A stretch of DNA of 64,000 nt from a virus (Duplodnaviria > Caudoviricetes): IMG/VR virus record IMGVR_UViG_3300028864_000017. One strand, given 5' to 3'. Made by a program: the position numbers and the translations under genes. Of this stretch, positions 3,767 through 60,365 are shown piece by piece (position 1 is the stretch's first letter; each line of letters begins with the position of its first letter). The notes below the pieces were generated by a model. That model was not told where the DNA came from, did no database searches, and worked only from the letters and a program-made list of their open reading frames with translations.

Positions 3767-4225
3767 ATGTCTGAAAACGAAGATTTAGATTCACGTCAAA
3801 AGTTACAAAAAAAGATGTTAGAATCTACTAAACAATGGATTGCTATTGTAAATAAATTAACTGGTAGATTAATTCATGATGATTTGAAAAATATTGCAGA
3901 TATTCAAGCTGAAGCAATAAGTCAAAGACAAATGGTAGTTGAAGAAATAAAAAATTATAGTGTTAAAATACATAAACTTGTTCAAAAAACAAAGGTATTA
4001 ACAAAAGCTAAATTTGAATTCTACGCAACATCATATCAAGTTAAAACTTCTGGAACTGAAAAATTGAGATTAATTGAAGCAGATTTATCTGAACATCAAT
4101 GTTTTATAAATGAATTAGATGAACATGTTAATTTTTTAAGAGATACATCTAAAAATTTAGAATCAATAAACTATTCTGTTAAAGCTAAAATTGAACTTGC
4201 AAATATACTAGGAGGATATAAATAA
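3767..4225 (+). CDS. uvsY: UvsY-like recombination mediator protein
   Basis: 152-aa helical protein with FYAT...IEADL...VNFL..T.KNL....YSVK..IE pattern; sits just upstream of uvsW as in T4-like phages. Confidence 0.6.
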   Translation: MSENEDLDSRQKLQKKMLESTKQWIAIVNKLTGRLIHDDLKNIADIQAEAISQRQMVVEEIKNYSVKIHKLVQKTKVLTKAKFEFYATSYQVKTSGTEKLRLIEADLSEHQCFINELDEHVNFLRDTSKNLESINYSVKAKIELANILGGYK

Positions 4226-4464
4226 TGTTAATCAATGAAGAATTAAAAACCTATGGAATTAAATCAGCTTCTATGATATCAGAAGGAATATTTAAACCAA
4301 GAATTATTATAAAACATTTAGATAACTCTGTATATAGTTATTATGTAAATGAAGAAATAATATCTATTGAATTATTAAATGATATAATTAATAAACATAT
4401 TAATACTGTTTGTATAAAAAAAATCAGAATTAATAAATTAAATGAAATAGATGAAAATAGATGA
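4225..4464 (+). CDS. Hypothetical protein with C-terminal RxxKLxxI tag
   Basis: Ends IRINKLNEIDENR; coupled to its neighbours. Confidence 0.6.
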   Translation: MLINEELKTYGIKSASMISEGIFKPRIIIKHLDNSVYSYYVNEEIISIELLNDIINKHINTVCIKKIRINKLNEIDENR

Positions 4465-30304: not shown

Positions 30305-31786
30305 ATGCTTGTAGATTACGAATATAAAAATAACAATTTAATATTAAGTTTTATAAACTCCAAAGGTAATATTGAACTTAAATATTATCCTTGGGCTAGA
30401 CCAACAAAATTCATAAAAACTACTGATGATGATTCAGAAAAAAGTGGTAGATATGTAACCTGGGATGGCTCCTCAGTAAAGGAAATTTATTCAAAATATC
30501 CAAATCGTTATTCAGTTTATGATTTTATTGATAGTTTTGATAAAAAAGAAAGGGATGAAATTTATTCATATAATGAACCTGATATATTCTTTGTAGATAT
30601 AGAAAATGAGATATTAGACAAAAAACCTGAGCCTCATTTAGCTGAAAGTGCAATTCAAACAATTTCAATTGTAAATAAGAATAAAGTGTTAGTAATTGGT
30701 ACAGAACCATTAGATTCCAAACAAATTTTAAGTATAGAATCCGATTTGGTTACATACTTCAAAAAATTTGATATTGATTATAAATTTAAGTATATTCATT
30801 ATAAAACTGAATTTGATATGCTTCATGCATTTTTTAATAAATTAGTTCCAAAGATGGCTGTAATAACTGGTTGGAATTTCATTGGTTATGACTGGACATT
30901 CTTAGTTGCAAGAGCTAGAAAATTAGGACTTGAACCTGAGGTTGCATCATTCACAAGAAAACTTAATAAACCATTCAACCCACCAAATGCAATACATCCA
31001 GATTATTCTGAATTACCTGCTCATAGAGTTATTGTTGATTATATGGAATTATTTAAGAAATGGGATCAATCTGTTAAAGTTAAAGAAAGTTTATCACTTG
31101 ATTTTGCATCTGAAAAAATACTTGGTAAAGAGATTAAGAAAATTAACTATGATGGTGATTTAAAAAGATTACACAGAGAAGATTTTAAAAAATTCGTGTT
31201 TTATAATGCAGTAGATAGTTGTCTTGTACAAAGGATTCATGAAAAAATGAAATATGTAGACATTCTTTATGGTATGGCTGTATTAGGTAAAATTAAGATT
31301 AAAGATGCTATTTCTACTCTTGCTCTAACAGAAGGAATTTTAAGAGAGAAATTAAGAGATCAAAAAAATATTGTACTTGTAAGAAATGAAGATAGTGAAT
31401 ATGGAGACACAGAATCTGAAGCTATAAAAGGAGGATGGGTTAAAGATCCAGTAAGAGGTATGGCAACATGGACATGTTGTTTTGACTTTGCATCTCTATA
31501 TCCTACAACAATGAGGGAATTTAATATATCAGCAGATTCATATAAAGGACAAAAAGTAAAAGGAAAAGACTACTCAATTTTTAATGGACATCAATTAGAA
31601 ATTGATTCTGATGATATTGTTACTCTAAATGGTTCAGTATTTAAGAATGAAGACGGAGTTGTTACTCAAGTAATGGCTGAAGTATATTCAGATAGAAAAA
31701 AATGGAAGAAAGTAATGAATCAAAAGCACGAAGAACTTGAAAAATTAAAAGATGAATTAAAAAAATTAGAAGAAACTGCATTATAA
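30305..31786 (+). CDS. gp43: Family-B DNA polymerase, N-terminal subunit (T4 gp43A-like: 3'-5' exonuclease + motif A); split polymerase
   Basis: ExoI FVDIE, ExoII GWNFIGYDW, ExoIII YNAVD, motif A DFASLYP; ends in the fingers helix; motifs B and C absent. Confidence 0.85.
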   Translation: MLVDYEYKNNNLILSFINSKGNIELKYYPWARPTKFIKTTDDDSEKSGRYVTWDGSSVKEIYSKYPNRYSVYDFIDSFDKKERDEIYSYNEPDIFFVDIENEILDKKPEPHLAESAIQTISIVNKNKVLVIGTEPLDSKQILSIESDLVTYFKKFDIDYKFKYIHYKTEFDMLHAFFNKLVPKMAVITGWNFIGYDWTFLVARARKLGLEPEVASFTRKLNKPFNPPNAIHPDYSELPAHRVIVDYMELFKKWDQSVKVKESLSLDFASEKILGKEIKKINYDGDLKRLHREDFKKFVFYNAVDSCLVQRIHEKMKYVDILYGMAVLGKIKIKDAISTLALTEGILREKLRDQKNIVLVRNEDSEYGDTESEAIKGGWVKDPVRGMATWTCCFDFASLYPTTMREFNISADSYKGQKVKGKDYSIFNGHQLEIDSDDIVTLNGSVFKNEDGVVTQVMAEVYSDRKKWKKVMNQKHEELEKLKDELKKLEETAL

Positions 31787-31800
31787 GTAATAATAAAAAT

Positions 31801-32307
31801 ATGGTAATTCCAATATATTTAAAGCCAAAATTTAAAGTAGGAGATATAATTATATCATTATTTGATATTAATTTAGAATATTATCGTTTCACTCCTTATC
31901 ATGAATTTACAATAATTAGTCATAATGATGAAGATGGTTATACAATTAAAGATAACGAATTAGGAATAGAATTAGTAGTAGATTCACATTATAAAAAAAA
32001 TCCAATTCATGATTTATTAAAAAACTTTACGATAAAAACAGATTTAAATACTGCTAGAAAAAGATCAAATTATTTAAATAGAAAGAAAAATTTTATCGAA
32101 TTTATTAGAACGAATTGTCCAAATCTAAGTTATGGTTATGATGAATATGAAAGATATGAAACTTGTAAAATAAAAAAAGGATATTGTAATTCTTGTAATA
32201 TATCAGAAGATTGTATTTGTCATATTAGTTCTGATGCTGTTAATAAAAATTCAGATGTAATTAAATATATTAGGGATAAAAAATTAAAAAAAATTAAAAA
32301 TATTTGA
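31801..32307 (+). CDS. Hypothetical protein (FKVGD SH3-like N-terminus, Cys cluster, RxxKL tag)
   Basis: PKFKVGDII; CxxKKGYCNSCxxxxxCxC; ends IRDKKLKKIKNI. Confidence 0.65.
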   Translation: MVIPIYLKPKFKVGDIIISLFDINLEYYRFTPYHEFTIISHNDEDGYTIKDNELGIELVVDSHYKKNPIHDLLKNFTIKTDLNTARKRSNYLNRKKNFIEFIRTNCPNLSYGYDEYERYETCKIKKGYCNSCNISEDCICHISSDAVNKNSDVIKYIRDKKLKKIKNI

Positions 32308-32597
32308 TGCCAAAAAATCTTGAATTATATCAAAAAATCTTAGATGCTTCAAATATGATTCACAATAAATCATTGAAAGGAAGCGGAAATTATATCATAT
32401 TGAATTCGAAATGTTCAGAAATATTAGAAAAATACGAAGAACAACGAAAGAAAAAGGAAGATAGAAAGAAAAAATTGAAACAGATAGAAAAATTATCAAC
32501 TAATACAGATGATGAAATTAATAATATCCTATATTTTAGAAAGAATGAATCAGAAAAATATAGGCAAAAAATAGAATTTAAACATAAAAAACATTAA
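32307..32597 (+). CDS. Small protein with a gp23-major-capsid-like segment and RxxKL motif
   Basis: ATG at 32307 overlaps the upstream stop; LYQKILDASNMIHNKSLKGSGNYIILNSKCSEIL then DRKKKLKQI. Confidence 0.6.
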   Translation: MPKNLELYQKILDASNMIHNKSLKGSGNYIILNSKCSEILEKYEEQRKKKEDRKKKLKQIEKLSTNTDDEINNILYFRKNESEKYRQKIEFKHKKH

Positions 32598-33222: not shown

Positions 33223-33660
33223 ATGAAACCAGTAAGAGTTTTTTTTAAATCAGTGAGTAAATATTTTGAAACCTGTTCATTATGGGTTATTTTTGGTGTG
33301 ACATACATATCAGCATTAGTTATTTTTCTATTGATGTTTCGTCTTTTTATTGGTAATAACGATGTTATTATTCTTAATGTTTTTATAAAACTTTCATTCT
33401 TTTTATCTTTTATATTTTCTTGCTTATCAACATTAACAGTTAGTAGTTCAAGAAAAAGTGATGTTTTTTGGAAATATCATAATGAAGTTGAAACTTTGAT
33501 AAATGATTCTGATACAGTTGATTCTTTACACGATATATTTGATAACGAAATACAAAAATTATGGAAAATGTCAATTGGTGGAATACATAATTTAGAAGCA
33601 AATAGATTGGTTTCATTAATTAATATAAAAATAAAAACAATTGAGAAAATAAAGCCATGA
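33223..33660 (+). CDS. Two-TM membrane protein
   Basis: Two hydrophobic segments followed by a helical soluble tail. Confidence 0.6.
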   Translation: MKPVRVFFKSVSKYFETCSLWVIFGVTYISALVIFLLMFRLFIGNNDVIILNVFIKLSFFLSFIFSCLSTLTVSSSRKSDVFWKYHNEVETLINDSDTVDSLHDIFDNEIQKLWKMSIGGIHNLEANRLVSLINIKIKTIEKIKP

Positions 33661-33896
33661 AAAATACAACAGTAGAGAGTTATTTATTATCTATTGAGGC
33701 ATTAGGAGAAAATATTATAAAAAAAATAAAAATTTCTGCATATACAGATGATGTAGCATGTTATAATGTAACTTATTTTGATGTTGAATTAGCAAAAAAT
33801 AGAAAAAAATTAATCACTATTAAATTATCTGAATATCATTTATTTATAAATAAATTGATTCGTAAACAAAAACTTCAAAAACTATCTGAATATTAA
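33657..33896 (+). CDS. Hypothetical protein with RxxKL tag
   Basis: Ends IRKQKLQKLSEY. Confidence 0.6.
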   Translation: MKNTTVESYLLSIEALGENIIKKIKISAYTDDVACYNVTYFDVELAKNRKKLITIKLSEYHLFINKLIRKQKLQKLSEY

Positions 33897-48466: not shown

Positions 48467-48501
48467 AAAAAAAAGCTTCATTTTTTATGAAGCTTTTTTT
48501 T
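48467..48501. terminator. Bidirectional terminator
   Basis: aaaaaaagcttca-tttttta-tgaagcttttttt between convergent genes. Confidence 0.8.
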
Positions 48502-49252
48502 ATTTTGACATTTTTAATTCTTCATCTTTAATTCTATTCTTTGAAACATTAAAATATTTTATATCTAATTCAATTCCTATGAAATTTCTATCATATCTTA
48601 AACATGCAATTCCAGTTGTTCCACTACCCATGCAATTATCTAATACAGTATCACCTTTTTCAGTGTATGTCTTTATTAACTCACTCAGTAAATCTATGGA
48701 TTTTTCTGTTGGATGCTTTACTATACTTGGATGAGGTTTAGGAAATTTCCAAATTGATTTAGGGTATTTTAAAGTTGTTCCTGCTCTTGAATCATCAGTA
48801 CTTTTAAATTTACCATAATTTTGATTCTTAGGAATTTTATTCATATATGTTTTACCTTTAGAATGTAAAGGAACTCCAGTGTCTATCATTTGAGGAAAAT
48901 ACTTAGGTAATTTCTTATAAAATACTGCAATCTGCTCATGTGATCTAAGTGGCATACGTTTAGAATTTAAAAATCCTGTTGTCAATTCTTTGTCCCAAAT
49001 AATATCATATCTAAACATCTTTCTATTGCTATTAACCAAGTCCACATAGAACAATCCTTGAGCAAACAATACAATTGCACCATTAGACTTTATTATTCTC
49101 TTATACTGCTCCCATAAAGGTTCAAATGGTATTTTCAAATCTTTTTTATTTTGGGTAACTCCAAAAGGCAAATCGCACAAAATCAAATCAACAGATTTAT
49201 CTGGAATATCTATCATCATCTCTAAGCAATCACCATTTTTTAAATCATACAT
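48500..49252 (-). CDS. DNA N6-adenine/N4-cytosine methyltransferase (beta class)
   Basis: GDCLE, DLILCDLPFG (motif IV variant), HE.I.VFY, HPTEK, VLDNCMGSGTT (motif I), FIGIE. Confidence 0.9.
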   Translation of the reverse strand: MYDLKNGDCLEMMIDIPDKSVDLILCDLPFGVTQNKKDLKIPFEPLWEQYKRIIKSNGAIVLFAQGLFYVDLVNSNRKMFRYDIIWDKELTTGFLNSKRMPLRSHEQIAVFYKKLPKYFPQMIDTGVPLHSKGKTYMNKIPKNQNYGKFKSTDDSRAGTTLKYPKSIWKFPKPHPSIVKHPTEKSIDLLSELIKTYTEKGDTVLDNCMGSGTTGIACLRYDRNFIGIELDIKYFNVSKNRIKDEELKMSK

Positions 49253-49619: not shown

Positions 49620-49818
49620 TTGATTTAGAAATTATTTCATTTAATTTATCAAGTCTTATTTTTATTTTTTCTTTTCTTATTTGTTCAATCTTATATTGTT
49701 GACTTAATATAGTCCACTCCTTTAACATGCTAGTAACTGAATTTGTCTTTATTTGATCAGGTAATTCATCTCGACTGAATTTAACATCAAATTTTGTTTC
49801 GTCTATTGTTATTTTCAT
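49600..49818 (-). CDS. Hypothetical protein with RxxK[LI] tag
   Basis: IRKEKIKIRLDKLNEI near the C-terminus. Confidence 0.6.
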   Translation of the reverse strand: MKITIDETKFDVKFSRDELPDQIKTNSVTSMLKEWTILSQQYKIEQIRKEKIKIRLDKLNEIISKSNDNTKL

Positions 49819-50399
49819 TTTAATTTTTTTAATTTTTTATATCTAATATATGATTTTGTTTCTTGATGTTCATAATAACTCCAAATTTCTTTCAATTGAG
49901 ATTCATCTTTAATACGACTTTCATCATCAATCTCTATAACATTAACATAAAATGTTTTTGGTGTGAAAGGAATTTTTATTGTTTGTTTGCTTGTAATACT
50001 TTCATTCTTATTATTAAGTGCTCCGCCAGTATATGATGAATTATTTTCATCAACAAAAACAATTGCATCCAAATAATATGGACTACCATCAGTTGATACT
50101 TTAAAAACAGCACTACAACGATTATTCTGAAATAACATTTCACTATCATCCATAGTCACATCAATCCATTCATCATCAGTACACATGATAGGTGCAATTG
50201 GCTTAAAATTAGCTAATTTTGTAAAATAACTAATAGCATATGACGCTGAAAACCCAGAATGTCCTTGTTTAGAAAAAACTTCTAGTAACTCTAACACATT
50301 TTCTTGTACCCATTTATCTGGATCATTTTCACATTCTTCAACAGGTTTATAACCTATTTTTAGAAATTCTCTTTTAGCGTGTTCTATTAAATTACTCAT
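49815..50399 (-). CDS. Hypothetical phage protein with RxxKL tag
   Basis: HAKREF...VLELLEVFSKQGHSGFSA...QNNRCSAVFK; ends IRYKKLKKLK. Confidence 0.7.
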   Translation of the reverse strand: MSNLIEHAKREFLKIGYKPVEECENDPDKWVQENVLELLEVFSKQGHSGFSASYAISYFTKLANFKPIAPIMCTDDEWIDVTMDDSEMLFQNNRCSAVFKVSTDGSPYYLDAIVFVDENNSSYTGGALNNKNESITSKQTIKIPFTPKTFYVNVIEIDDESRIKDESQLKEIWSYYEHQETKSYIRYKKLKKLK

Positions 50400-50709: not shown

Positions 50710-50969
50710 TTTAATTTTTTTAATTTTTTTAATTTTTCTTTTCTTGAATTGTAATTTATATATCTGTGACATCTATTACAAGCCCAACTATCTGGCTCAT
50801 ATTGTTTATCTGGTTGATATGGTTTGTGACCATTTATTTTACAAATCAATGGCATAAATGTATCATCAAAAGTAATTCTATCAAAATTTTTAATTAATTT
50901 CCAAGTTTTATTCCAATTCTTATATTTAATATAATGAAATAAATTTTGTGTTTCTCTACCACATCCCAT
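50706..50969 (-). CDS. Small Cys/His zinc-finger-like protein with RxxKL tag
   Basis: LICKINGHKP...WACNRCH; ends SRKEKLKKLKKLK. Confidence 0.6.
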   Translation of the reverse strand: MGCGRETQNLFHYIKYKNWNKTWKLIKNFDRITFDDTFMPLICKINGHKPYQPDKQYEPDSWACNRCHRYINYNSRKEKLKKLKKLK

Positions 50970-51210
50970 AACTATTCAACATTTTTATTTTTAATTTTCT
51001 ATATTCTTTTATTGACATAAAATCACATTCAAGATACCAACTTTGAATAGTGGTTCCAAATTTTACAGAATATAAAATATCAGATAAATTATCTGAATAT
51101 CGATATGAATATCCATATATTTTATATGTTTTATACTCCTTGAGATTCCATCCATAAATATTTTTAGAATTATTTATGAATATAACGTTATCACCAACAT
51201 GAAACTTCAT
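50956..51210 (-). CDS. SH3-like small protein with RxxK[LI] tag
   Basis: MKFHVGDNVIF...YKI...FMSIKEYRKLKIKML. Confidence 0.65.
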   Translation of the reverse strand: MKFHVGDNVIFINNSKNIYGWNLKEYKTYKIYGYSYRYSDNLSDILYSVKFGTTIQSWYLECDFMSIKEYRKLKIKMLNSYGMW

Positions 51211-52237: not shown

Positions 52238-52462
52238 ATGAAAAGAATCAAATGTAAAAAATCAGATGTAGTAACTGACAACAGAACCTACAACATTCTA
52301 AATAATGATAATACAGATCCTTATTGGGACGAAGGATTACACTTTTATCCAGAACAATCAAGAATAACAAGAAAGTTTAAAAAGAAACAATTGCTAATGT
52401 ATCAAATAAGAATGTATAAAACTTGGAAGCACAATAGAAGTAATCAATATAAAGTAAAATAA
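52238..52462 (+). CDS. Small basic hypothetical protein
   Basis: Ends TWKHNRSNQYKVK. Confidence 0.55.
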   Translation: MKRIKCKKSDVVTDNRTYNILNNDNTDPYWDEGLHFYPEQSRITRKFKKKQLLMYQIRMYKTWKHNRSNQYKVK

Positions 52463-52464
52463 TT

Positions 52465-53118
52465 ATGTTTTTTTTTAAAAGTAAAATAAATGAATTGACA
52501 TATTTACGTCAATATACACATCATAGTGATTATGATTCATCAGAAAAAATGAAATATGAATCAATTGATAGTATTATGAAATACTTCAGAAAAATGATTG
52601 ATATTGATGAAAAATGTGGATTATCAATAGAATCAAAATTTAAAGATGTTATTTATCCTGTTTTTGATTTAGATTGTAAATCTAAATATGAATTATTTAA
52701 AACTTTACATGAAGATACTCCATATGTAATATTCATAAGTAGTTGTAACGATGACGATGATGATGAAAAAAAATATCACTATTGGGGAATTATTGGAAAT
52801 TCTAACAAAAAATTCAAAGAATTAATATCAAATCAAAATTGGAAAATCTGCAATGATAATAATTATGTAAAATTTTCAACAGAAATAAGTAAAATTCTAA
52901 TTAGAGGAATATTTGAAAATAAAAATAGAAAGCCAAAATTATTTGAAAAAAATGGTATTCTATCTGAAGATTTTGAAATGTTCATATCTAAATTAGAAAG
53001 TCATTATAATACTAATGGCTTTGAATTGTCAGTATTAAGATATAAGAATACTGAACTATTGATACAATTCAATAGAAAATTAAAATTGAAAAAGATAAAT
53101 TATAGTGAAAAAGAATAA
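52465..53118 (+). CDS. AEP (primase-polymerase) superfamily-like protein with RxxKL tag
   Basis: PVFDLD (DxD), ISS...YHYW (SxxxH-like), CNDNNY (third Asp); ends NRKLKLKKI. Confidence 0.4.
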   Translation: MFFFKSKINELTYLRQYTHHSDYDSSEKMKYESIDSIMKYFRKMIDIDEKCGLSIESKFKDVIYPVFDLDCKSKYELFKTLHEDTPYVIFISSCNDDDDDEKKYHYWGIIGNSNKKFKELISNQNWKICNDNNYVKFSTEISKILIRGIFENKNRKPKLFEKNGILSEDFEMFISKLESHYNTNGFELSVLRYKNTELLIQFNRKLKLKKINYSEKE

Positions 53119-53275
53119 AAAAAATGAAAATATTTTTAATGTAGTTAACTTAGATTTTGCAAGCTTATATCCATCCTCATTTAAAATTGATGAACGATTG
53201 ATTGCTGAGCTAAATAGAAAAAAAACAAATGAAAAAAGACGGCAAAAGCTTGAAAAAATAAATAACTTAAAATGA
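53105..53275 (+). CDS. Unannotated 56-aa ORF carrying PolB motif A and an RxxKL tag
   Basis: GTG start; VKKNKKNENIFNVVNLDFASLYPSSFKIDERLIAELNRKKTNEKRRQKLEKINNLK*; TGA overlaps the next ATG (ATGA at 53272). Confidence 0.65.
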   Translation: MKKNKKNENIFNVVNLDFASLYPSSFKIDERLIAELNRKKTNEKRRQKLEKINNLK

Positions 53276-53781
53276 AAAAAATAGTAAATGGATGTTTAAA
53301 TTGTCCTTTTTGTCATACTGAGTATGATTATGATACAATAGGAAAACCAGACACTGATGTATGTGTATTGTCAAATTATTTAAAATTAAATAATCCTTAT
53401 ATTGATTTGAATGAAAATGAATATAAACCAAAATGGTGTCCTCTTATAAATGATGATTATACTTTTAAATTTAAAGAATTTTCTGATAAAACAAAAAATG
53501 AGATACTAACTTTAAATAAAAAAATATCTGAAAATGAATACCAATATGGACAAGATTATGAAAATGATGAATTTGATTATATTGCGAATAACATAGAAAA
53601 CAAAGAATTATATAAAAAATTAGATGAATTGATGAATAATGATGAATTATCTGATTACAATGAAGACATCAAAGAAGAATTTAATAATAGTATAGATCAA
53701 GTTAAAAATCAATTGAAAAATTTAGAAGCACTTGGTACAAAATTAAACGATGAATTGAACAATTTAGGTAATATACATTAA
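53272..53781 (+). CDS. Cys-rich N-terminal domain + coiled-coil protein
   Basis: CLNCPFC...C...WCPL followed by heptads. Confidence 0.65.
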   Translation: MKKIVNGCLNCPFCHTEYDYDTIGKPDTDVCVLSNYLKLNNPYIDLNENEYKPKWCPLINDDYTFKFKEFSDKTKNEILTLNKKISENEYQYGQDYENDEFDYIANNIENKELYKKLDELMNNDELSDYNEDIKEEFNNSIDQVKNQLKNLEALGTKLNDELNNLGNIH

Positions 53782-53791
53782 TCTAAATATT

Positions 53792-54127
53792 ATGAAAATA
53801 ATACCTATAAAATCAAAAAAACAAGATAATGGTTTGTGGGGTATGCCTAAAAATTGTTATTATATCGAACACTATTTTCAATTAGAAGAAAGAAATGAAT
53901 TTATTTTATCTGCATTAATAAATTGTTTGAATACTAAATTTAATGAGAGATTTGAAATGTCTCTTTTGAGTGAAAAAAAGATTTATTTTAAATTTGAAAA
54001 ACATGGAACTGTGATTCTTTCATTTAATGATTATGAAGTATTTAATGATAAGTTGTATGAATTTGATAATGTTAATGAACATAATATTTTTATGAGAAAA
54101 CAGAAATTAATAGAAATTAATGTATAA
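53792..54127 (+). CDS. Hypothetical protein with RxxKL tag
   Basis: Ends MRKQKLIEINV. Confidence 0.6.
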   Translation: MKIIPIKSKKQDNGLWGMPKNCYYIEHYFQLEERNEFILSALINCLNTKFNERFEMSLLSEKKIYFKFEKHGTVILSFNDYEVFNDKLYEFDNVNEHNIFMRKQKLIEINV

Positions 54128-54410
54128 ATACAACAGCAATTCACCAGAATATCAAAAATTACTTGAAGAATTAAAATTATATTATATAAATATACTTAAA
54201 GAATCAGAGTTCGGATATAATGTATATAGTGTATTAAGATTTATGAAAAGTGATAATAACAATTATGATTATATTGTTTCTGTTAAATTAGAAAAAAAAT
54301 ATAAATTAACAGGATATCATTATGTTATAGAACATCATTATTTATCTGAACTTCAATTAAATAATATAAGCAGAATAAATAAACTGAATAAATTATGTCA
54401 GACAACATAG
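54120..54410 (+). CDS. Hypothetical protein with RxxKL tag; paralog of the next gene
   Basis: Y..LL.ELK.YY...L.ELQ....SRINKLNKL. Confidence 0.65.
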   Translation: MYKYNSNSPEYQKLLEELKLYYINILKESEFGYNVYSVLRFMKSDNNNYDYIVSVKLEKKYKLTGYHYVIEHHYLSELQLNNISRINKLNKLCQTT

Positions 54411-54676
54411 TATCTAATTTAGATACTAAATCATATCTACTGTTATTAAGAGAATTGAAAAAATATTATAACAAAAAATTCAATAATAAATATGATTTTA
54501 GTATTCGTGAAATAGTTAAAGAATTCAATTCATCACTTTATACTGTAGTTATTATATTTCATTATAATAGTAAACATGATAGTTATGAAATTAAAATTTT
54601 AACTGAACTTCAAGTGATTTCAATATTGAGAATATCTAAACTAAATAAAATAAATGAAAGACACAGAATTAACTAA
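54395..54676 (+). CDS. Hypothetical protein with RxxKL tag; paralog of the previous gene
   Basis: YLLLLRELKKYY...LTELQ....LRISKLNKI. Confidence 0.65.
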   Translation: MSDNIVSNLDTKSYLLLLRELKKYYNKKFNNKYDFSIREIVKEFNSSLYTVVIIFHYNSKHDSYEIKILTELQVISILRISKLNKINERHRIN

Positions 54677-54923
54677 CGATGATTTTAAAGTAGGACAAAT
54701 TGTCACTTGTGTAACATTTGATGATAATGATTACTGGGATCAACATTTGACAGTAGGGAAAAAATATAAAATTGAGGATATTGATTGGCATTTTGAAAAT
54801 AAAATTGTGGTAAGAAGTGATAACAAAAAATTGAGTCAATTTGTACCAATACGATTTTTTTCTGATAAAAAAATAATTAGAAAAATGAAATTAGAAAAAC
54901 TGAATAAAATATGTACAAAGTAG
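54654..54923 (+). CDS. SH3-like small protein with RxxKL tag
   Basis: FKVGQIVTC...LTVGKKYKI...RFFS...IRKMKLEKL. Confidence 0.65.
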   Translation: MKDTELTNDDFKVGQIVTCVTFDDNDYWDQHLTVGKKYKIEDIDWHFENKIVVRSDNKKLSQFVPIRFFSDKKIIRKMKLEKLNKICTK

Positions 54924-55243
54924 GAGATATTATGGTTTGTATTGATAATACGCCTAAATCTGATAACATTTTTTATGATTTCATTTCATATTGTTTAAAA
55001 TACAAAAAATCAAATCCTTTAGAAATAAATAAAACATATACCATTAAAAAAATTCAATCATATTGGGATGATGATGGAAATTGCTATGAATTACTTGATG
55101 ATACTAGCAGTAGATATCAAAATACTTCATATATGTTAGAAGAAGTTGAGGAAATATATGGATATACAGTTTTTGATATAAATAGATTTATTGGGTTAAA
55201 AGAATATAGAACATCAAAACTAAAAAAATTAAATGAAATATGA
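54911..55243 (+). CDS. SH3-like small protein with RxxKL tag
   Basis: YKVGDIMVCI...LEINKTYTI...RFIGLKEYRTSKLKKL. Confidence 0.65.
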   Translation: MYKVGDIMVCIDNTPKSDNIFYDFISYCLKYKKSNPLEINKTYTIKKIQSYWDDDGNCYELLDDTSSRYQNTSYMLEEVEEIYGYTVFDINRFIGLKEYRTSKLKKLNEI

Positions 55244-55484
55244 CAAAATTATAGTTGGAGATTTTTTAATTTGCATTAAAAATGATTATACAAATGATAA
55301 CCTCATAACAGTAAATAAAGAATATAAAGTATTAGAAATAGGTAGAAATTATAGTACAATAACAATAATGACAGATGTTGGTATCATATGCGATATAATA
55401 TTTTATTCATTTTTCATTAGTAAAAGAATTTTAAGAAAAAATAAATTGAATAAATTGAATAAAATATTTTGTGAATTGGATTAA
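55233..55484 (+). CDS. SH3-like small protein with RxxKL tag
   Basis: IVGDFLICI...ITVNKEYKV...FFIS...LRKNKLNKL. Confidence 0.65.
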   Translation: MKYDKIIVGDFLICIKNDYTNDNLITVNKEYKVLEIGRNYSTITIMTDVGIICDIIFYSFFISKRILRKNKLNKLNKIFCELD

Positions 55485-55550: not shown

Positions 55551-56945
55551 ATGATTGAGTTAAAAGGTAAATATACAGACGCTAAAATATTTATAGATGA
55601 AGTTGAAGAAGGAGTCTATACACAAATATACAATGTCATTAACTCAGAAACATCTAATGGGTTGAAAGTCAGACTAATGCCAGACGTGCATGTTGGCTCA
55701 GATATTTGTATTGGGTTTTCCATGGAATTGGGTAAGTATCTCAAACCAAGCACTATAGGTGTGGATATCGGCTGCGGGATGCTAAGTGCTAGATTTTCAG
55801 GTAGAACCACATTAGATTTAGAAAAAATTGATAATCTGATACGTGAAAATGTTCCTATGGGATTTGGTATGCACGAAGATATCAAATTTAAAAATATCCC
55901 TTTTGGTGATGTTCAAGTAATTGCAGATAACTTCATTGTAAAATTTAACGAAAAATTTGGGACATCTTATGATTCTCCATCATACAATGATAAATGGCTA
56001 ACATCTAAATTGAAAGATATTGGAATTGATGAAGGTAAATTTTACAAATCTATTGGTACATTAGGAGGTGGTAACCACTTTATTGAACTTGGTAAGTCAG
56101 ATAAGACTAATGATTATTGGGTAACAGTCCACTCTGGGTCAAGAAACTTTGGACTTAAAATTGCGGAATACTGGACTAAAGTTGCAAGAGGTAAAGTATT
56201 TGTTGCAACCAAAGAATATAACATGGAATTGGATGACATTACAATGAATACTTATCCTAAATCTGATATTGATAAAAAAATAAAAGAATTAAGGACAAGA
56301 TACAGTCTTAATATTGACAAAGAATATTTAGATGGTGAGTATCTTATTGGATATCTATTTGATATGATTTTTGCTCAACAATATGCTCTATGGAGTAGAA
56401 AAACAATGTTATCATTGATAAAAAAAGCATTGAATATCAAAAAGTTTGATGAAGAAATTCATTCAATACATAACTATGTTGATTTCAAAGATTTTATCAT
56501 AAGAAAAGGTGCAATCTCATCTTATGTTGGTGAAAAAATGATTATACCATTCAATATGAGAGATGGAATACTTATATGCGAAGGTAAATCAAATGAAGAT
56601 TGGAACAACTCAGCACCACATGGGTCTGGTCGTTTGATGTCAAGATCAAAAGCAAAAGAGTCAATTGATTTAAAAGATTTTCAGAAAGTAATGAAAGGTA
56701 TATATTCAACATCTGTATGTAAAAGTACAATTGATGAATCACCATTTGCTTACAAAAACTCTGATATGATTGAAAAAGCTATCGAGCCTACTGCATTAAT
56801 TCTTGATAAAATAAAACCAATCTTAAACATAAAAGATAAATCTGAAGGTACATCTTGGAAAGATAAGAAAGAGCAAAAAAAGAAAGATAAGCAACGTAAC
56901 AACGAAAGAAATGAAGTTTCTTATCAAAAGATGAAAAAATTCTAA
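55551..56945 (+). CDS. rtcB: RtcB RNA 2',3'-cyclic-phosphate/5'-OH ligase
   Basis: MPDVHVG, GVDIGCGM, GTLGGGNHFIE, VHSGSRNFG, HNY, RKGA, IIPFNM, SAPHGSGR, DESPFAYK. Confidence 0.95.
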   Translation: MIELKGKYTDAKIFIDEVEEGVYTQIYNVINSETSNGLKVRLMPDVHVGSDICIGFSMELGKYLKPSTIGVDIGCGMLSARFSGRTTLDLEKIDNLIRENVPMGFGMHEDIKFKNIPFGDVQVIADNFIVKFNEKFGTSYDSPSYNDKWLTSKLKDIGIDEGKFYKSIGTLGGGNHFIELGKSDKTNDYWVTVHSGSRNFGLKIAEYWTKVARGKVFVATKEYNMELDDITMNTYPKSDIDKKIKELRTRYSLNIDKEYLDGEYLIGYLFDMIFAQQYALWSRKTMLSLIKKALNIKKFDEEIHSIHNYVDFKDFIIRKGAISSYVGEKMIIPFNMRDGILICEGKSNEDWNNSAPHGSGRLMSRSKAKESIDLKDFQKVMKGIYSTSVCKSTIDESPFAYKNSDMIEKAIEPTALILDKIKPILNIKDKSEGTSWKDKKEQKKKDKQRNNERNEVSYQKMKKF

Positions 56946-57606: not shown

Positions 57607-57840
57607 ATGTTTAAATTAGGAGAAATTGTAGTTTGTATTGATGATAGTGATGATACTACTACATATGAACCATATAAAAATTTAAAAAAATACTCAACAT
57701 ATGAGGTAAAGAATGACGGATATTATTTTAATACTATTAGTGTTTCATTAACTGATATAAAAGGAAGATTCAGAGTAACAAGATTCATGTCTGTTAAAGA
57801 ATATAGAAAATTAAAATTAGAAAAATTAAATAAAAAATAA
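57607..57840 (+). CDS. SH3-like small protein with RxxKL tag
   Basis: MFKLGEIVVCI...LKKYSTYEV...RFMSVKEYRKLKLEKLNKK. Confidence 0.65.
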   Translation: MFKLGEIVVCIDDSDDTTTYEPYKNLKKYSTYEVKNDGYYFNTISVSLTDIKGRFRVTRFMSVKEYRKLKLEKLNKK

Positions 57841-57851
57841 AAAAGTAAATT

Positions 57852-59738
57852 ATGGGAAAAATTATTGGAATTGACTTGGGTTCATATAACTCAGCAGTAT
57901 CTATTGTAGAAGGTGGACAAACAATTGTCATACCTAATTCAGAAGGATCAGTATCAACACCATCTGTTGTTGCATTTGATGTGAAAACAGGAGAAATTAA
58001 AGTTGGTGATGCAGCTAAAAGGCAAGCAGCATTAAATCCAAAAAACACAATTTTTAATATCAAAAGACTTATTGGTAGAACTTATGACGAAGTTAAACAT
58101 CTAAAACGTCCTTATGACATTGTAGATAATAATGGTAAAGCTGCTGTAAAAATTGGAGATAGAATATATTCACCAGAAGAAATATCTGCAATCATTCTTC
58201 AAAAAATGAAAAAAACAGCAGAGGATTATCTTGGAGCAAATGTAGAAAGTGCTGTAATAACAGTACCAGCGTATTTTAATTCAGATGAAAGAAGTAGCAC
58301 AAAAGTAGCAGGAGAAATTGCTGGATTAAAAGTAGAAAGAATTATATCAGAACCAACTGCTGCTTCATTAAACATAAAAAATGAAACTGATAAATTATAT
58401 TTTATAATAGATAGTGGTGGTTGTACATCAGATTTTAGTTCAATTTCAATTGAAGATGGCTTATTTGAAGTAATAGCAACAGATGGTAGTTTAGATCTTG
58501 GAGGTAATTTAATTGATGATGCACTTGTTAATTACATTTCTGATGATTTTTTAAAAGAATCAGGAGTAGATATAAGAAAAGATCCTATGGCTCTTCAACG
58601 TGTCACAGAAGCAGCAGAAAAAGCAAAAATTGAGTTATCTAATGTTACACAAACAGAAATCAATTTACCTTATATTACTGCAGTTGACGGAACGCCAAAA
58701 CATTTAGTTAAAACTATAACTCGTGCCAAATTTGAACAATTAATTCAATTTTATGTTGACGAAACAATGAAATTAATTAAATCATCAATTAAAAAAAGCA
58801 ATAAGAATATAAGTGATATTGATGAAATTGTTCTTGTAGGAGGTAGCACAAGAATACCATATTTAGTAGATAACATTGAAAAATATTTTGGTAAGAAATC
58901 TAACAAGTCTCTTAACGCTGATACTGCCATAGCATCAGGGGCTGCTATACAAGGATCCGTTCTTGCTGGAGATACAACTGACATATTATTACTTGATGTT
59001 ACAGCGTTGAGCTTCTGTATTGAAACCATGGGTGGTGTATCAACTAAAATGATAGAAGCAAATACTACAATACCGACAAGTAAGTCACAGGTATTCAGTA
59101 CGGCTTCGGATAACCAACCAAGTGTCCAGGTTAATGTTTGTACAGGAGAAAGACCTATGTATGTAAACAACAAACACTTAGGTACATTTTCACTTGATGT
59201 TCCACCTGCTCGTAGAGGTACACCACAAGTAGAAATCACATTCAGCATTGATAGCAATTCTATTCTAACAGTCAAAGCTGTTGATAAAGCAACTGGAAAA
59301 TCCAATGATATTAGAATTGAAGGTAAATCATCGTTAACAAAAGAAGAGATTGAAAGAATGAAGAATGAAGCTGAACAAAATGCTGATTCAGATAAAAAAG
59401 AAAAAGAGAAAGTTGATAAACTTAATCAAGCAGATTCTATGATTTTTCAAACAGAAAAACAAATTGAAGATTTTTCTGATAAGTTAACTGAAGAAAACAA
59501 AACTGAATTGAATTCTAAGCTTGGTAATCTTAAAGAAGCTCACAAAACTCAAAATGTTGATACTATTGATAACTGCATTAAAGAATTGAATGATTCTTGG
59601 CAAAATATTAGTTCTAAGCTTTATGAAAAATCTCAAAATGAGTCAACAAATGATTCTAATCCAACAAATGAAACTCAATCACCTAATAAAGATGATTCTG
59701 AAAATGTGACAGACGTAGATTTTGAGGAAGTAAAATAA
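57852..59738 (+). CDS. dnaK: Hsp70/DnaK chaperone with divergent nucleotide-binding motifs
   Basis: GIDLG, KRLIG, TVPAYF, EPTAA, LVGGSTRIP, linker ILLLDV, NTTIPT, DNQP, C-terminal DFEEVK. Confidence 0.95.
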   Translation: MGKIIGIDLGSYNSAVSIVEGGQTIVIPNSEGSVSTPSVVAFDVKTGEIKVGDAAKRQAALNPKNTIFNIKRLIGRTYDEVKHLKRPYDIVDNNGKAAVKIGDRIYSPEEISAIILQKMKKTAEDYLGANVESAVITVPAYFNSDERSSTKVAGEIAGLKVERIISEPTAASLNIKNETDKLYFIIDSGGCTSDFSSISIEDGLFEVIATDGSLDLGGNLIDDALVNYISDDFLKESGVDIRKDPMALQRVTEAAEKAKIELSNVTQTEINLPYITAVDGTPKHLVKTITRAKFEQLIQFYVDETMKLIKSSIKKSNKNISDIDEIVLVGGSTRIPYLVDNIEKYFGKKSNKSLNADTAIASGAAIQGSVLAGDTTDILLLDVTALSFCIETMGGVSTKMIEANTTIPTSKSQVFSTASDNQPSVQVNVCTGERPMYVNNKHLGTFSLDVPPARRGTPQVEITFSIDSNSILTVKAVDKATGKSNDIRIEGKSSLTKEEIERMKNEAEQNADSDKKEKEKVDKLNQADSMIFQTEKQIEDFSDKLTEENKTELNSKLGNLKEAHKTQNVDTIDNCIKELNDSWQNISSKLYEKSQNESTNDSNPTNETQSPNKDDSENVTDVDFEEVK

Positions 59739-59833: not shown

Positions 59834-60076
59834 ATGTTCAATATAAATAGGAAACATCTTTGTAAGAAAAACTCAAAGTATTGTATTAAAGGTAATATTT
59901 ATGATATTCATATGATATCTTTTAATTGTATTTCAATATATTTGGATAATTATCCTATTTATGAAAATTTTATATTTGAGGAAGGTTATTATACATATTT
60001 AAATTTTTATGATTATTTTTATACTGAGAAGGAAGAAAGGAAATTAAAATTAGAAAATATTAAAAATGTCAGATAA
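59834..60076 (+). CDS. Small protein with RxxKL tag; paralog of the next gene
   Basis: CK....Y.I...F...YDYFYTEKEERKLKLENI. Confidence 0.65.
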   Translation: MFNINRKHLCKKNSKYCIKGNIYDIHMISFNCISIYLDNYPIYENFIFEEGYYTYLNFYDYFYTEKEERKLKLENIKNVR

Positions 60077-60365
60077 TAAAAAAATAAATAAAGAAAGGAA
60101 ATATCGTTGCAAAGAATCAATATATGGTTTTATAATAAATAAATATTATGAAATTAATGAGATATACACATATATGATTGAGATGCGTATTATTGTTAAT
60201 TATCAATATAATTATTATTGTTTCTCATTAGAAGATGATTATGATTCACTTCCTAATTTTAATAGATTTTTTTATTCTGAGAAAGAAGAAAGGAAAGTAA
60301 AATTAAAACAAATAGAAGAATCACAAAAAATCACAAAAAATAATAATATTTTACTTGAAGCATAA
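60066..60365 (+). CDS. Small protein with RxxKL tag; paralog of the previous gene
   Basis: YRCK...YYEI...FNRFFYSEKEERKVKLKQI. Confidence 0.65.
   Translation: MSDNKKINKERKYRCKESIYGFIINKYYEINEIYTYMIEMRIIVNYQYNYYCFSLEDDYDSLPNFNRFFYSEKEERKVKLKQIEESQKITKNNNILLEA

Follow-up and report, generated by a model that had tools for sequence, protein, structure and literature searches.

A gene of 56 codons at 53105..53275 (+) of a 64,000-nucleotide stretch of phage DNA (the window) is a genuine, conserved protein-coding gene, and its product is a member of a hitherto undescribed mini-protein family of huge phages from peat and comparable habitats. Members of the family combine a core homologous to the motif A region of family B DNA polymerases (PolB) with a C-terminal helix that ends in a tail also found on unrelated proteins of the same phage. 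That the ORF is a real gene, that it is a member of this family and that it is derived from PolB is a joint claim which we make with high confidence.

Translation of the 56 codons at 53105-53275 gives exactly the sequence quoted in a first-pass annotation of this DNA, which had described an ORF with a GTG start and a TGA stop shared with the next start as ATGA. This arrangement is present as described: the ATG of the downstream gene, at 53272, overlaps the stop, and at the other end the upstream 217-aa gene overlaps the mini-protein gene by 14 nt. Coupling of this kind had been called the style of the whole window, and gene overlaps of -4, -11 and -14 nt are indeed common in it. An SD core is present in five of the 102 non-overlapping window ORFs and missing in the other 97, GTG starts are used by five of 102 window genes, and the bases 5' of the gene starts are A-rich with a peak at -17 to -11. 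Given so few SD cores, the other GTG starts, the common overlaps and the A-rich upstream bases, the unusual-looking start of the mini-protein gene is normal for this genome. SD-independent initiation with such an A-rich pattern is known from Bacteroidota, and the start pattern of the window fits the suspected host range of its relatives (Bacteroidota). The window comes from an IMG/VR fragment of 97 kb with a G+C content of ~24% and a completeness rating of 14%, and its coding density is 95% under table 11; an alternative genetic code was rejected, as reading TGA as Trp adds only 3 or 4 residues (P0007). A promoter scan stayed below the shuffled expectation, no terminators were found inside the operon that holds the mini-protein gene, an Rfam search of the whole window gave no matches, and neither did a DNA-level search of the phage collection with the locus.

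The identical 56-aa product is encoded on at least 16 contigs from independent peat assemblies, and among contigs of four peat runs those of the window type show zero differences across the ORF, with a diverged strain co-occurring; an assembly artefact is thereby ruled out. The caution that the ORF might be a frameshifted pseudogene fragment or an artefact is not borne out either, since none of the contigs of these four runs carries a frameshifted window-type variant. Indels seen in peat contigs near 53123-53127 stem from 36-nt low-complexity pieces. A 330-kb relative (L005) has a 56-aa GTG ORF at the same place which is 61% identical, with neighbours that are 71-73% identical, and further syntenic copies are present in L027, L030, L032, L035 and L038. 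Across these seven lineages, the window included, an ORF of 54-70 aa occupies the same place; it starts with ATG in five (L027, L030, L032, L035 and L038) and with GTG in two (the window and L005). A programmed frameshift fusing the upstream gene to the ORF was considered and rejected on account of the ATG starts of the relatives and the lack of a conserved slippery site, and such a fusion is excluded by L035, where a 10-nt gap instead of an overlap separates the two genes.

Among random derivatives as diverged as the window and L005 are from each other, only 4.5% would keep the frame open. Pairwise dN/dS of the mini-protein gene is 0.56-0.92, values which are high and noisy and based on too few sites to decide, and for this reason the constraint on the gene is visible only at the family level. 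The dN/dS analysis of the motif proposed in the first-pass annotation gave a divided result: codons 15-36 of the core have a dN/dS of 0.25-0.35 in comparison with the window, but L005 against L027 gives 1.87 on very few sites. Differences between the window and L005 are spread evenly over the codon positions (15/12/15), the Ser codons of the motif differ synonymously between the two, and the flanks of the gene evolve fast around an invariant motif.

Conservation in related phages, which the annotation had wished to see checked, was addressed with a profile of the two closest mini-protein sequences, searched against 1.84 billion representatives at E<=1e-3. This search identified 25 related proteins, nearly all of 47-70 aa. 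The wider family surfaced only by this exhaustive HMM search; scans of IMG/VR and JGI with the neighbours or with the mini ORF found only one other lineage. Alignment A4 holds 26 sequences, of which the window protein is the first row, and residues D17, L21, Y22, P23, R45 and K48 are invariant throughout. In their shared layout a variable N-terminus leads into the core N-[FML]-D-[FY]-x-S-L-Y-P, to which x-x-M-[RK]-D-F is often joined; a linker then connects to a C-terminal helix that closes with R-K-E-K-L-E-K-[LI]-N-N-L. The ORF is open at similar length in at least 10 lineages, with identity down to 35%, and the window protein has the length, the invariant core D, L, Y and P, the helix R..K and the place after an AEP-like gene that characterize the family. 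In the window, the segment homologous to PolB motif A covers residues 11-35 (53135..53209 (+)) and corresponds to the strand, the catalytic Asp and SLYP, reaching into the beginning of the helix that follows; the LDFASLYPS core (residues 16-24, 53150-53176 (+)) lies within it. The C-terminal helix (53192..53272 (+)), which in the AF2 model spans residues 30-54, ends in the tail R45-x-x-K48-L-x-x-I-N-N-L. This helix is modelled with pLDDT 85-94, and the motif region has low confidence and no strand, as would be expected for a segment that folds on a partner. No family in Pfam, PHROG or PADLOC covers the mini-protein; for the proteins of its gene module, PHROGs and PADLOC returned only one weak PolB match (P0015) and weak coiled-coil matches of a 169-aa protein. 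A literature search for small phage proteins with SLYPS or for polymerase microproteins yielded nothing relevant.

The identification of LDFASLYPS as PolB motif A proved not significant for the match alone and significant once the family was used. A two-sequence profile gave E values of 0.28-2.6 against the PDB, with ribosomal protein uL15 scoring as well, whereas with the family profile 59 of the 60 top matches were family B polymerases, all aligned at motif A (best E 0.014). PF00136 is matched by three of the 26 family members (best E 4e-5), hhalign of the family against the tails of the clade's PolB N-halves gave Prob 97.3 and P 2.5e-11 over 25 columns, and 73 of the 100 nearest clusters among Atlas language-model neighbours fall in the PolB family set. 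As the PolBs of the clade reach 25-26 bits, compared with at most 18.4 bits for any solved PolB (same Z), the polymerase of the clade itself is the most likely source. The core is probably derived from the clade's own split PolB and most likely goes back to an ancient event in which part of the 3' end of the N-half gene was copied. The earlier description as a polymerase-derived mini-protein can thus be kept and made more precise, namely a conserved family with a core of 25 residues that shows homology to PolB motif A and is closest to the clade's split PolB. The two motif A sites in the window share 18 of 27 nt, and over the extended segment 30 of 76 nt are identical, so that the core is not a recent DNA-level copy of the phage's own PolB, in agreement with what the annotation had concluded. 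Translated in six frames, the 97-kb record contains D[FY]x[STN]LYP at these two sites only, in the mini ORF and in the PolB N-half. A comparison of the C-terminal helix with PolB finger helix 1 was not significant (P 0.23; reversed control 0.14). In relation to family B polymerases (PF00136; RB69/T4 gp43 type) the mini-protein shares ~25 residues, from the palm strand to the following helix, but it lacks the exonuclease domain (15 residues precede the motif and there is no PF03104 match), motif B (KxxxNSxYG) and motif C (YGDTDS), both absent from the 56-aa sequence, as well as the thumb; a protein of 56 aa is too small to be a polymerase by itself.

The PolB N-half of the phage (30305..31786 (+); PF03104 and PF00136) comprises an exonuclease domain and motif A, with finger helix 1 at its end. 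Its motif A, FDFASLYPT, had been correctly noted as having codons different from those of the mini ORF, with a position one base off; it lies at 31481-31507. No PolB C-half was found in the 97-kb record. Identity of the N-half amounts to 58% with its counterpart in the 735-kb uncultured phage LR756501 and to 39-43% with those of other phage genomes of 460-640 kb, all of which we take to be "huge phages" of Al-Shayeb et al. 2020. The split N-half is widespread: ~120 homologues have a length of roughly 490 aa. Halves of the clade's PolB, split at the finger tip, were located in the window (30305-31786), L021 (1459-2940(-)), L022 (1465-2826, the C-half of the 330-kb relative), L003 and L004; both the 330-kb relative and LR756501 encode the C-half as a gene of its own, which lies tens to hundreds of kb from the N-half. 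The C-half starts with a helix running into motif B and also carries YGDTDS. In PolB structures such as that of RB69 gp43, the motif-A strand is paired to the motif-C hairpin, and the two finger helices, 1 and 2, pair with each other. The pairing partners of the copied segment lie in the separate C-half, and the segment is therefore part of what must dock on it.

Split gp43 occurs in some T4-like phages. The clade's PolB resembles these and an engineered Pfu polymerase, for which a split at the finger tip is reported to be tolerated (PMC3061061), in being divided at the finger tip, and its halves lie far apart. What distinguishes the present case from the known split PolBs is that the mini-protein is a third, extra piece and that the N-half of the clade still has a motif A itself. 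In the 330-kb relative both PolB halves adjoin genes with repeated K-Y-G-V-E-N motifs, and a similar type of gene, with DUF723 matches and the look of a homing endonuclease, is present on clade contigs L031, L038 and L039.

A profile search of the complete 735-kb genome of LR756501 found neither the 56-aa form nor the AEP-like partner; the same mini-protein profile did find the PolB motif A of this phage, which served as a positive control. As the PolB of LR756501 is split and the 56-aa form is missing there, the mini-protein is not obligatory for assembly. LR756501 does contain a 135-aa ORF (L042 1408-1815 (-), at ~695.9 kb) of which the last 70 residues are colinear with its own PolB N-half. 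The part from motif A through NISxDxY matches this PolB with a BLASTP E of 3e-5, the finger helix 1 part has a Smith-Waterman score of 47 (25 +/- 4.7 for shuffled sequences, p ~0.001), and between the two parts there is a gap of ~29 residues; the ORF has a tail-like K-L-K-N-K-L end. Such a structure is consistent with a partial duplication of the N-half gene at its 3' end and a later internal deletion.

The mini-protein gene is inherited with, and predicted to be translationally coupled to, a gene for a ~220-aa protein with a putative AEP fold, the two being part of a five-gene accessory module. The module starts with a gene for a basic 74-aa protein (52238..52462 (+)), conserved upstream of the AEP-like gene in L005, L027 and L030, which is followed by the 217-aa upstream partner (52465..53118 (+)) with a weak AEP/RepB'-like primase fold, an invariant FDLD and the shared tail. 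Downstream of the mini-protein gene a 169-aa protein (53272..53781 (+)) has a Cys-rich N-terminus (CxxCxxC...WCP) and an acidic coiled coil; it is 73% identical in L005, and homologues are found downstream of the mini-protein gene in L024, L030, L032 and L035, sometimes with two to three small genes inserted between. A 111-aa protein (53792..54127 (+)) with a KQDNGLWGMP motif and the tail is conserved in L005, L030, L032 and L035. In seven out of eight lineages the mini-protein gene directly follows the AEP-like gene, overlapping or abutting it, the exception being L036, which has an AEP-like gene alone. The first-pass annotation missed the family, the tight coupling to the primase-like gene and the nature of the tail as an integral, conserved part of the protein.

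The 217-aa protein has 20 homologues, all ending in F-N-R-K-x-K-L-x-x-L-N (alignment A5), and no sequence-family match was found for it. Its AF2 model (pLDDT 88.9) matches RepB' weakly in VIA-align (Z 6.2, rmsd 4.6 Å, 136 residues aligned), and similarly weak matches were obtained to PriS (Z 5.7), S-2L PrimPol (5.5), LigD-pol, PrimPol and MPXV E5; Foldseek matches had E>=9e-3, and those in AFDB include RepB-like primases with TM 0.3-0.4. In the alignment, D68 and D70 of the FDLD, at the putative motif-I position, are invariant in 18 A5 sequences, and where the window protein has the candidate motif-II His, H105, three homologues have N or K. The protein is like members of the AEP superfamily (RepB'/PrimPol type) in its best fold matches and in its FDLD, but it differs from them in that Z is only 4-6, that the candidate motif-II His is not conserved and that many homologues have a membrane helix. 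This N-terminal hydrophobic or membrane helix, unusual for an AEP fold, is present in many of the AEP-like homologues and missing in the copy of the window.

The module lies in an accessory region rich in anti-defence genes and adjoins neither PolB half. It is flanked by genes for an N6/N4 DNA methylase (48500-49252(-), E 1e-28), a Tad3-family Thoeris inhibitor (49815-50399(-), E 3e-37), an RtcB RNA ligase (55551-56945, E 2e-53) and a full Hsp70/DnaK (57852-59738, E 2e-197). The arrangement from Tad3 to RtcB recurs in relatives.

The RxxKL tag pointed out in the annotation is real: R..K[LI]..[LI] occurs within the last 28 residues of 18 of the 102 window ORFs (0.13 expected from shuffles), with a single internal match. 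Examples of ORFs with the tail are found at 4225-4464, 33657-33896, 50956-51210(-), 54120-55484, 57607-57840 and 59834-60365. The Leu and Arg codons of the tail vary among the ORFs, which argues that the constraint acts on the peptide, and in both the mini-protein family and the AEP-like family the tail is an invariant, integral part. The tail consensus is R-K-x-K-L-x-K-[LI]-N, and several copies are preceded by K-E-[YE]. Proteins of T4 and T7 have acidic or clamp-binding terminal tails. Like these terminal tags, the tail of the window, R-K-x-K-L-x-K-L-N, is common to unrelated phage proteins; unlike them, it is basic and helical, and not acidic or aromatic.

Taken as a whole, the observations are best explained by a PolB-derived mini-protein family of microProtein-like mimics of the PolB N-half, an explanation that we favour tentatively and would place short of probable. 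The mini-protein would present its motif-A segment to a partner that normally packs against motif A, most plausibly the PolB C-half with motifs B and C, and would in this way influence how the split polymerase assembles or how active it is, possibly in concert with the primase-like neighbour. The roles suggested in the annotation, a decoy, a dominant-negative or a regulator of the split polymerase, are likewise hypothetical. The logic of such mimicry lies in the fact that the partners of the motif-A strand and of finger helix 1 are in the separate C-half. Weighing against it are the high and noisy pairwise dN/dS, the non-significant comparison of the C-terminal helix with finger helix 1, a position in the accessory region away from both PolB halves, the split PolB of LR756501 without the 56-aa form, and the low confidence of the motif region in the AF2 model. 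As to the mechanism proper, microProtein-like action on the C-half and/or with the primase-like neighbour is possible but somewhat doubtful. It is quite unlikely that the mini-protein goes as far as to replace the N-half on the C-half, supplying the motif-A strand and the catalytic Asp; the phage could then switch its polymerase between two states, one that proofreads and one that lacks the exonuclease or is inactive, perhaps with primers passed on from the primase-like neighbour, and the RKxKLxKL tail might be an address that brings tagged proteins to the same site.

The adjacency of the AEP-like gene, with overlapping or abutting frames in seven out of eight lineages, could also mean that the mini-protein is a partner subunit of the AEP-fold neighbour, perhaps together with the Cys-rich coiled-coil protein, and that the PolB segment has been re-used for something unrelated to PolB. 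The joint lack of both genes in LR756501 and the same tail on both proteins agree with this reading, which we regard as rather unlikely given that the AEP assignment is weak (Z<=6.2, TM 0.3-0.45, the usual motif-II His not conserved), that an N-terminal membrane helix in many homologues would be odd for a primase and that L036 has the AEP-like gene without the mini-protein gene. A location among counter-defence genes (Tad3 with E 3e-37, the N6/N4 methylase, RtcB), fast-evolving flanks around an invariant motif and a patchy presence among relatives would suit a decoy or substrate mimic that soaks up a host sensor, a modifying enzyme or a rival-phage factor targeting the active-site segment of PolB. 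Such a role seems unlikely to us: apart from the weak matches mentioned above, PADLOC and PHROG gave none for the module, and a defence system recognising PolB motif A as a linear peptide is not known to us, which counts against it.

Two further readings have little probability. A decaying, functionless PolB fragment, kept open by chance or by the constraint of overlapping neighbours, is very improbable. The high pairwise dN/dS, the even 15/12/15 distribution of differences and the use of the last 30 nt as the initiation region of the next gene are what such a fragment might show, but an ORF that has stayed open and of comparable length in at least 10 lineages, where identity falls as low as 35% and D, L, Y, P, R and K never change, the synonymous differences in the motif Ser codons and neighbour overlaps that reach only the ends of the ORF are not. 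The suggestion of a retained remnant fails on the same ground, as length, frame, start position and invariant residues are all conserved across those lineages. A chance resemblance to PolB, with the small protein unrelated to polymerases, could have been argued from the two-sequence profile and the similar score of uL15; against it stand the family-level statistics, the language-model neighbours and the LR756501 ORF colinear with two PolB segments, which leave it extremely improbable.

MicroProteins and small interfering peptides are known from eukaryotes, where Id proteins and LITTLE ZIPPER are examples. Like these, the mini-protein appears to be one interaction-forming piece of a larger multi-part protein and could titrate partners; unlike them, its piece is an active-site segment and not a dimerisation domain. 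Derivation from a part that contacts the partner, as in microProteins, is seen in the motif-A homology, and the LR756501 relative also keeps finger helix 1. We know of no example of a phage polymerase microProtein, nor, to our knowledge, have conserved mini-proteins cut from the catalytic centre of a replicative polymerase been described in phages. Should the family act on the split PolB, it would represent a new regulation of the viral replisome and offer a handle on the assembly of split polymerases, and a decoy function would point towards an as yet unknown system, of the host or of a rival, by which the active-site segment of PolB is read. In either case, genes of fewer than 60 aa in huge phages can be real, conserved and derived from a core enzyme, and the 56-aa peptide, the two PolB halves and one primase-like protein make up a compact, testable system.

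A 97-aa ORF located two genes after the PolB N-half (32304-32597 (+)) has a weak match to the T4 Gp23 capsid family (PF07068 positions 220-261; E 0.002 / 2.9e-4, below the cut-off) followed by R-K-K-K-L-K-Q-I-E-K-L, and it may be a second case of a piece of a core protein joined to the tail; no usable Atlas relatives of it were found. A general rule of core-protein fragments carrying the tail was rejected, as Pfam searches with 47 small window ORFs returned only a single weak Gp23 match. Several of the small tail-bearing proteins (54654-55484, 50956-51210(-) and 31801-32307) have an N-terminal K-V-G-D-x-V/I in common and look like a paralogous small-domain family.
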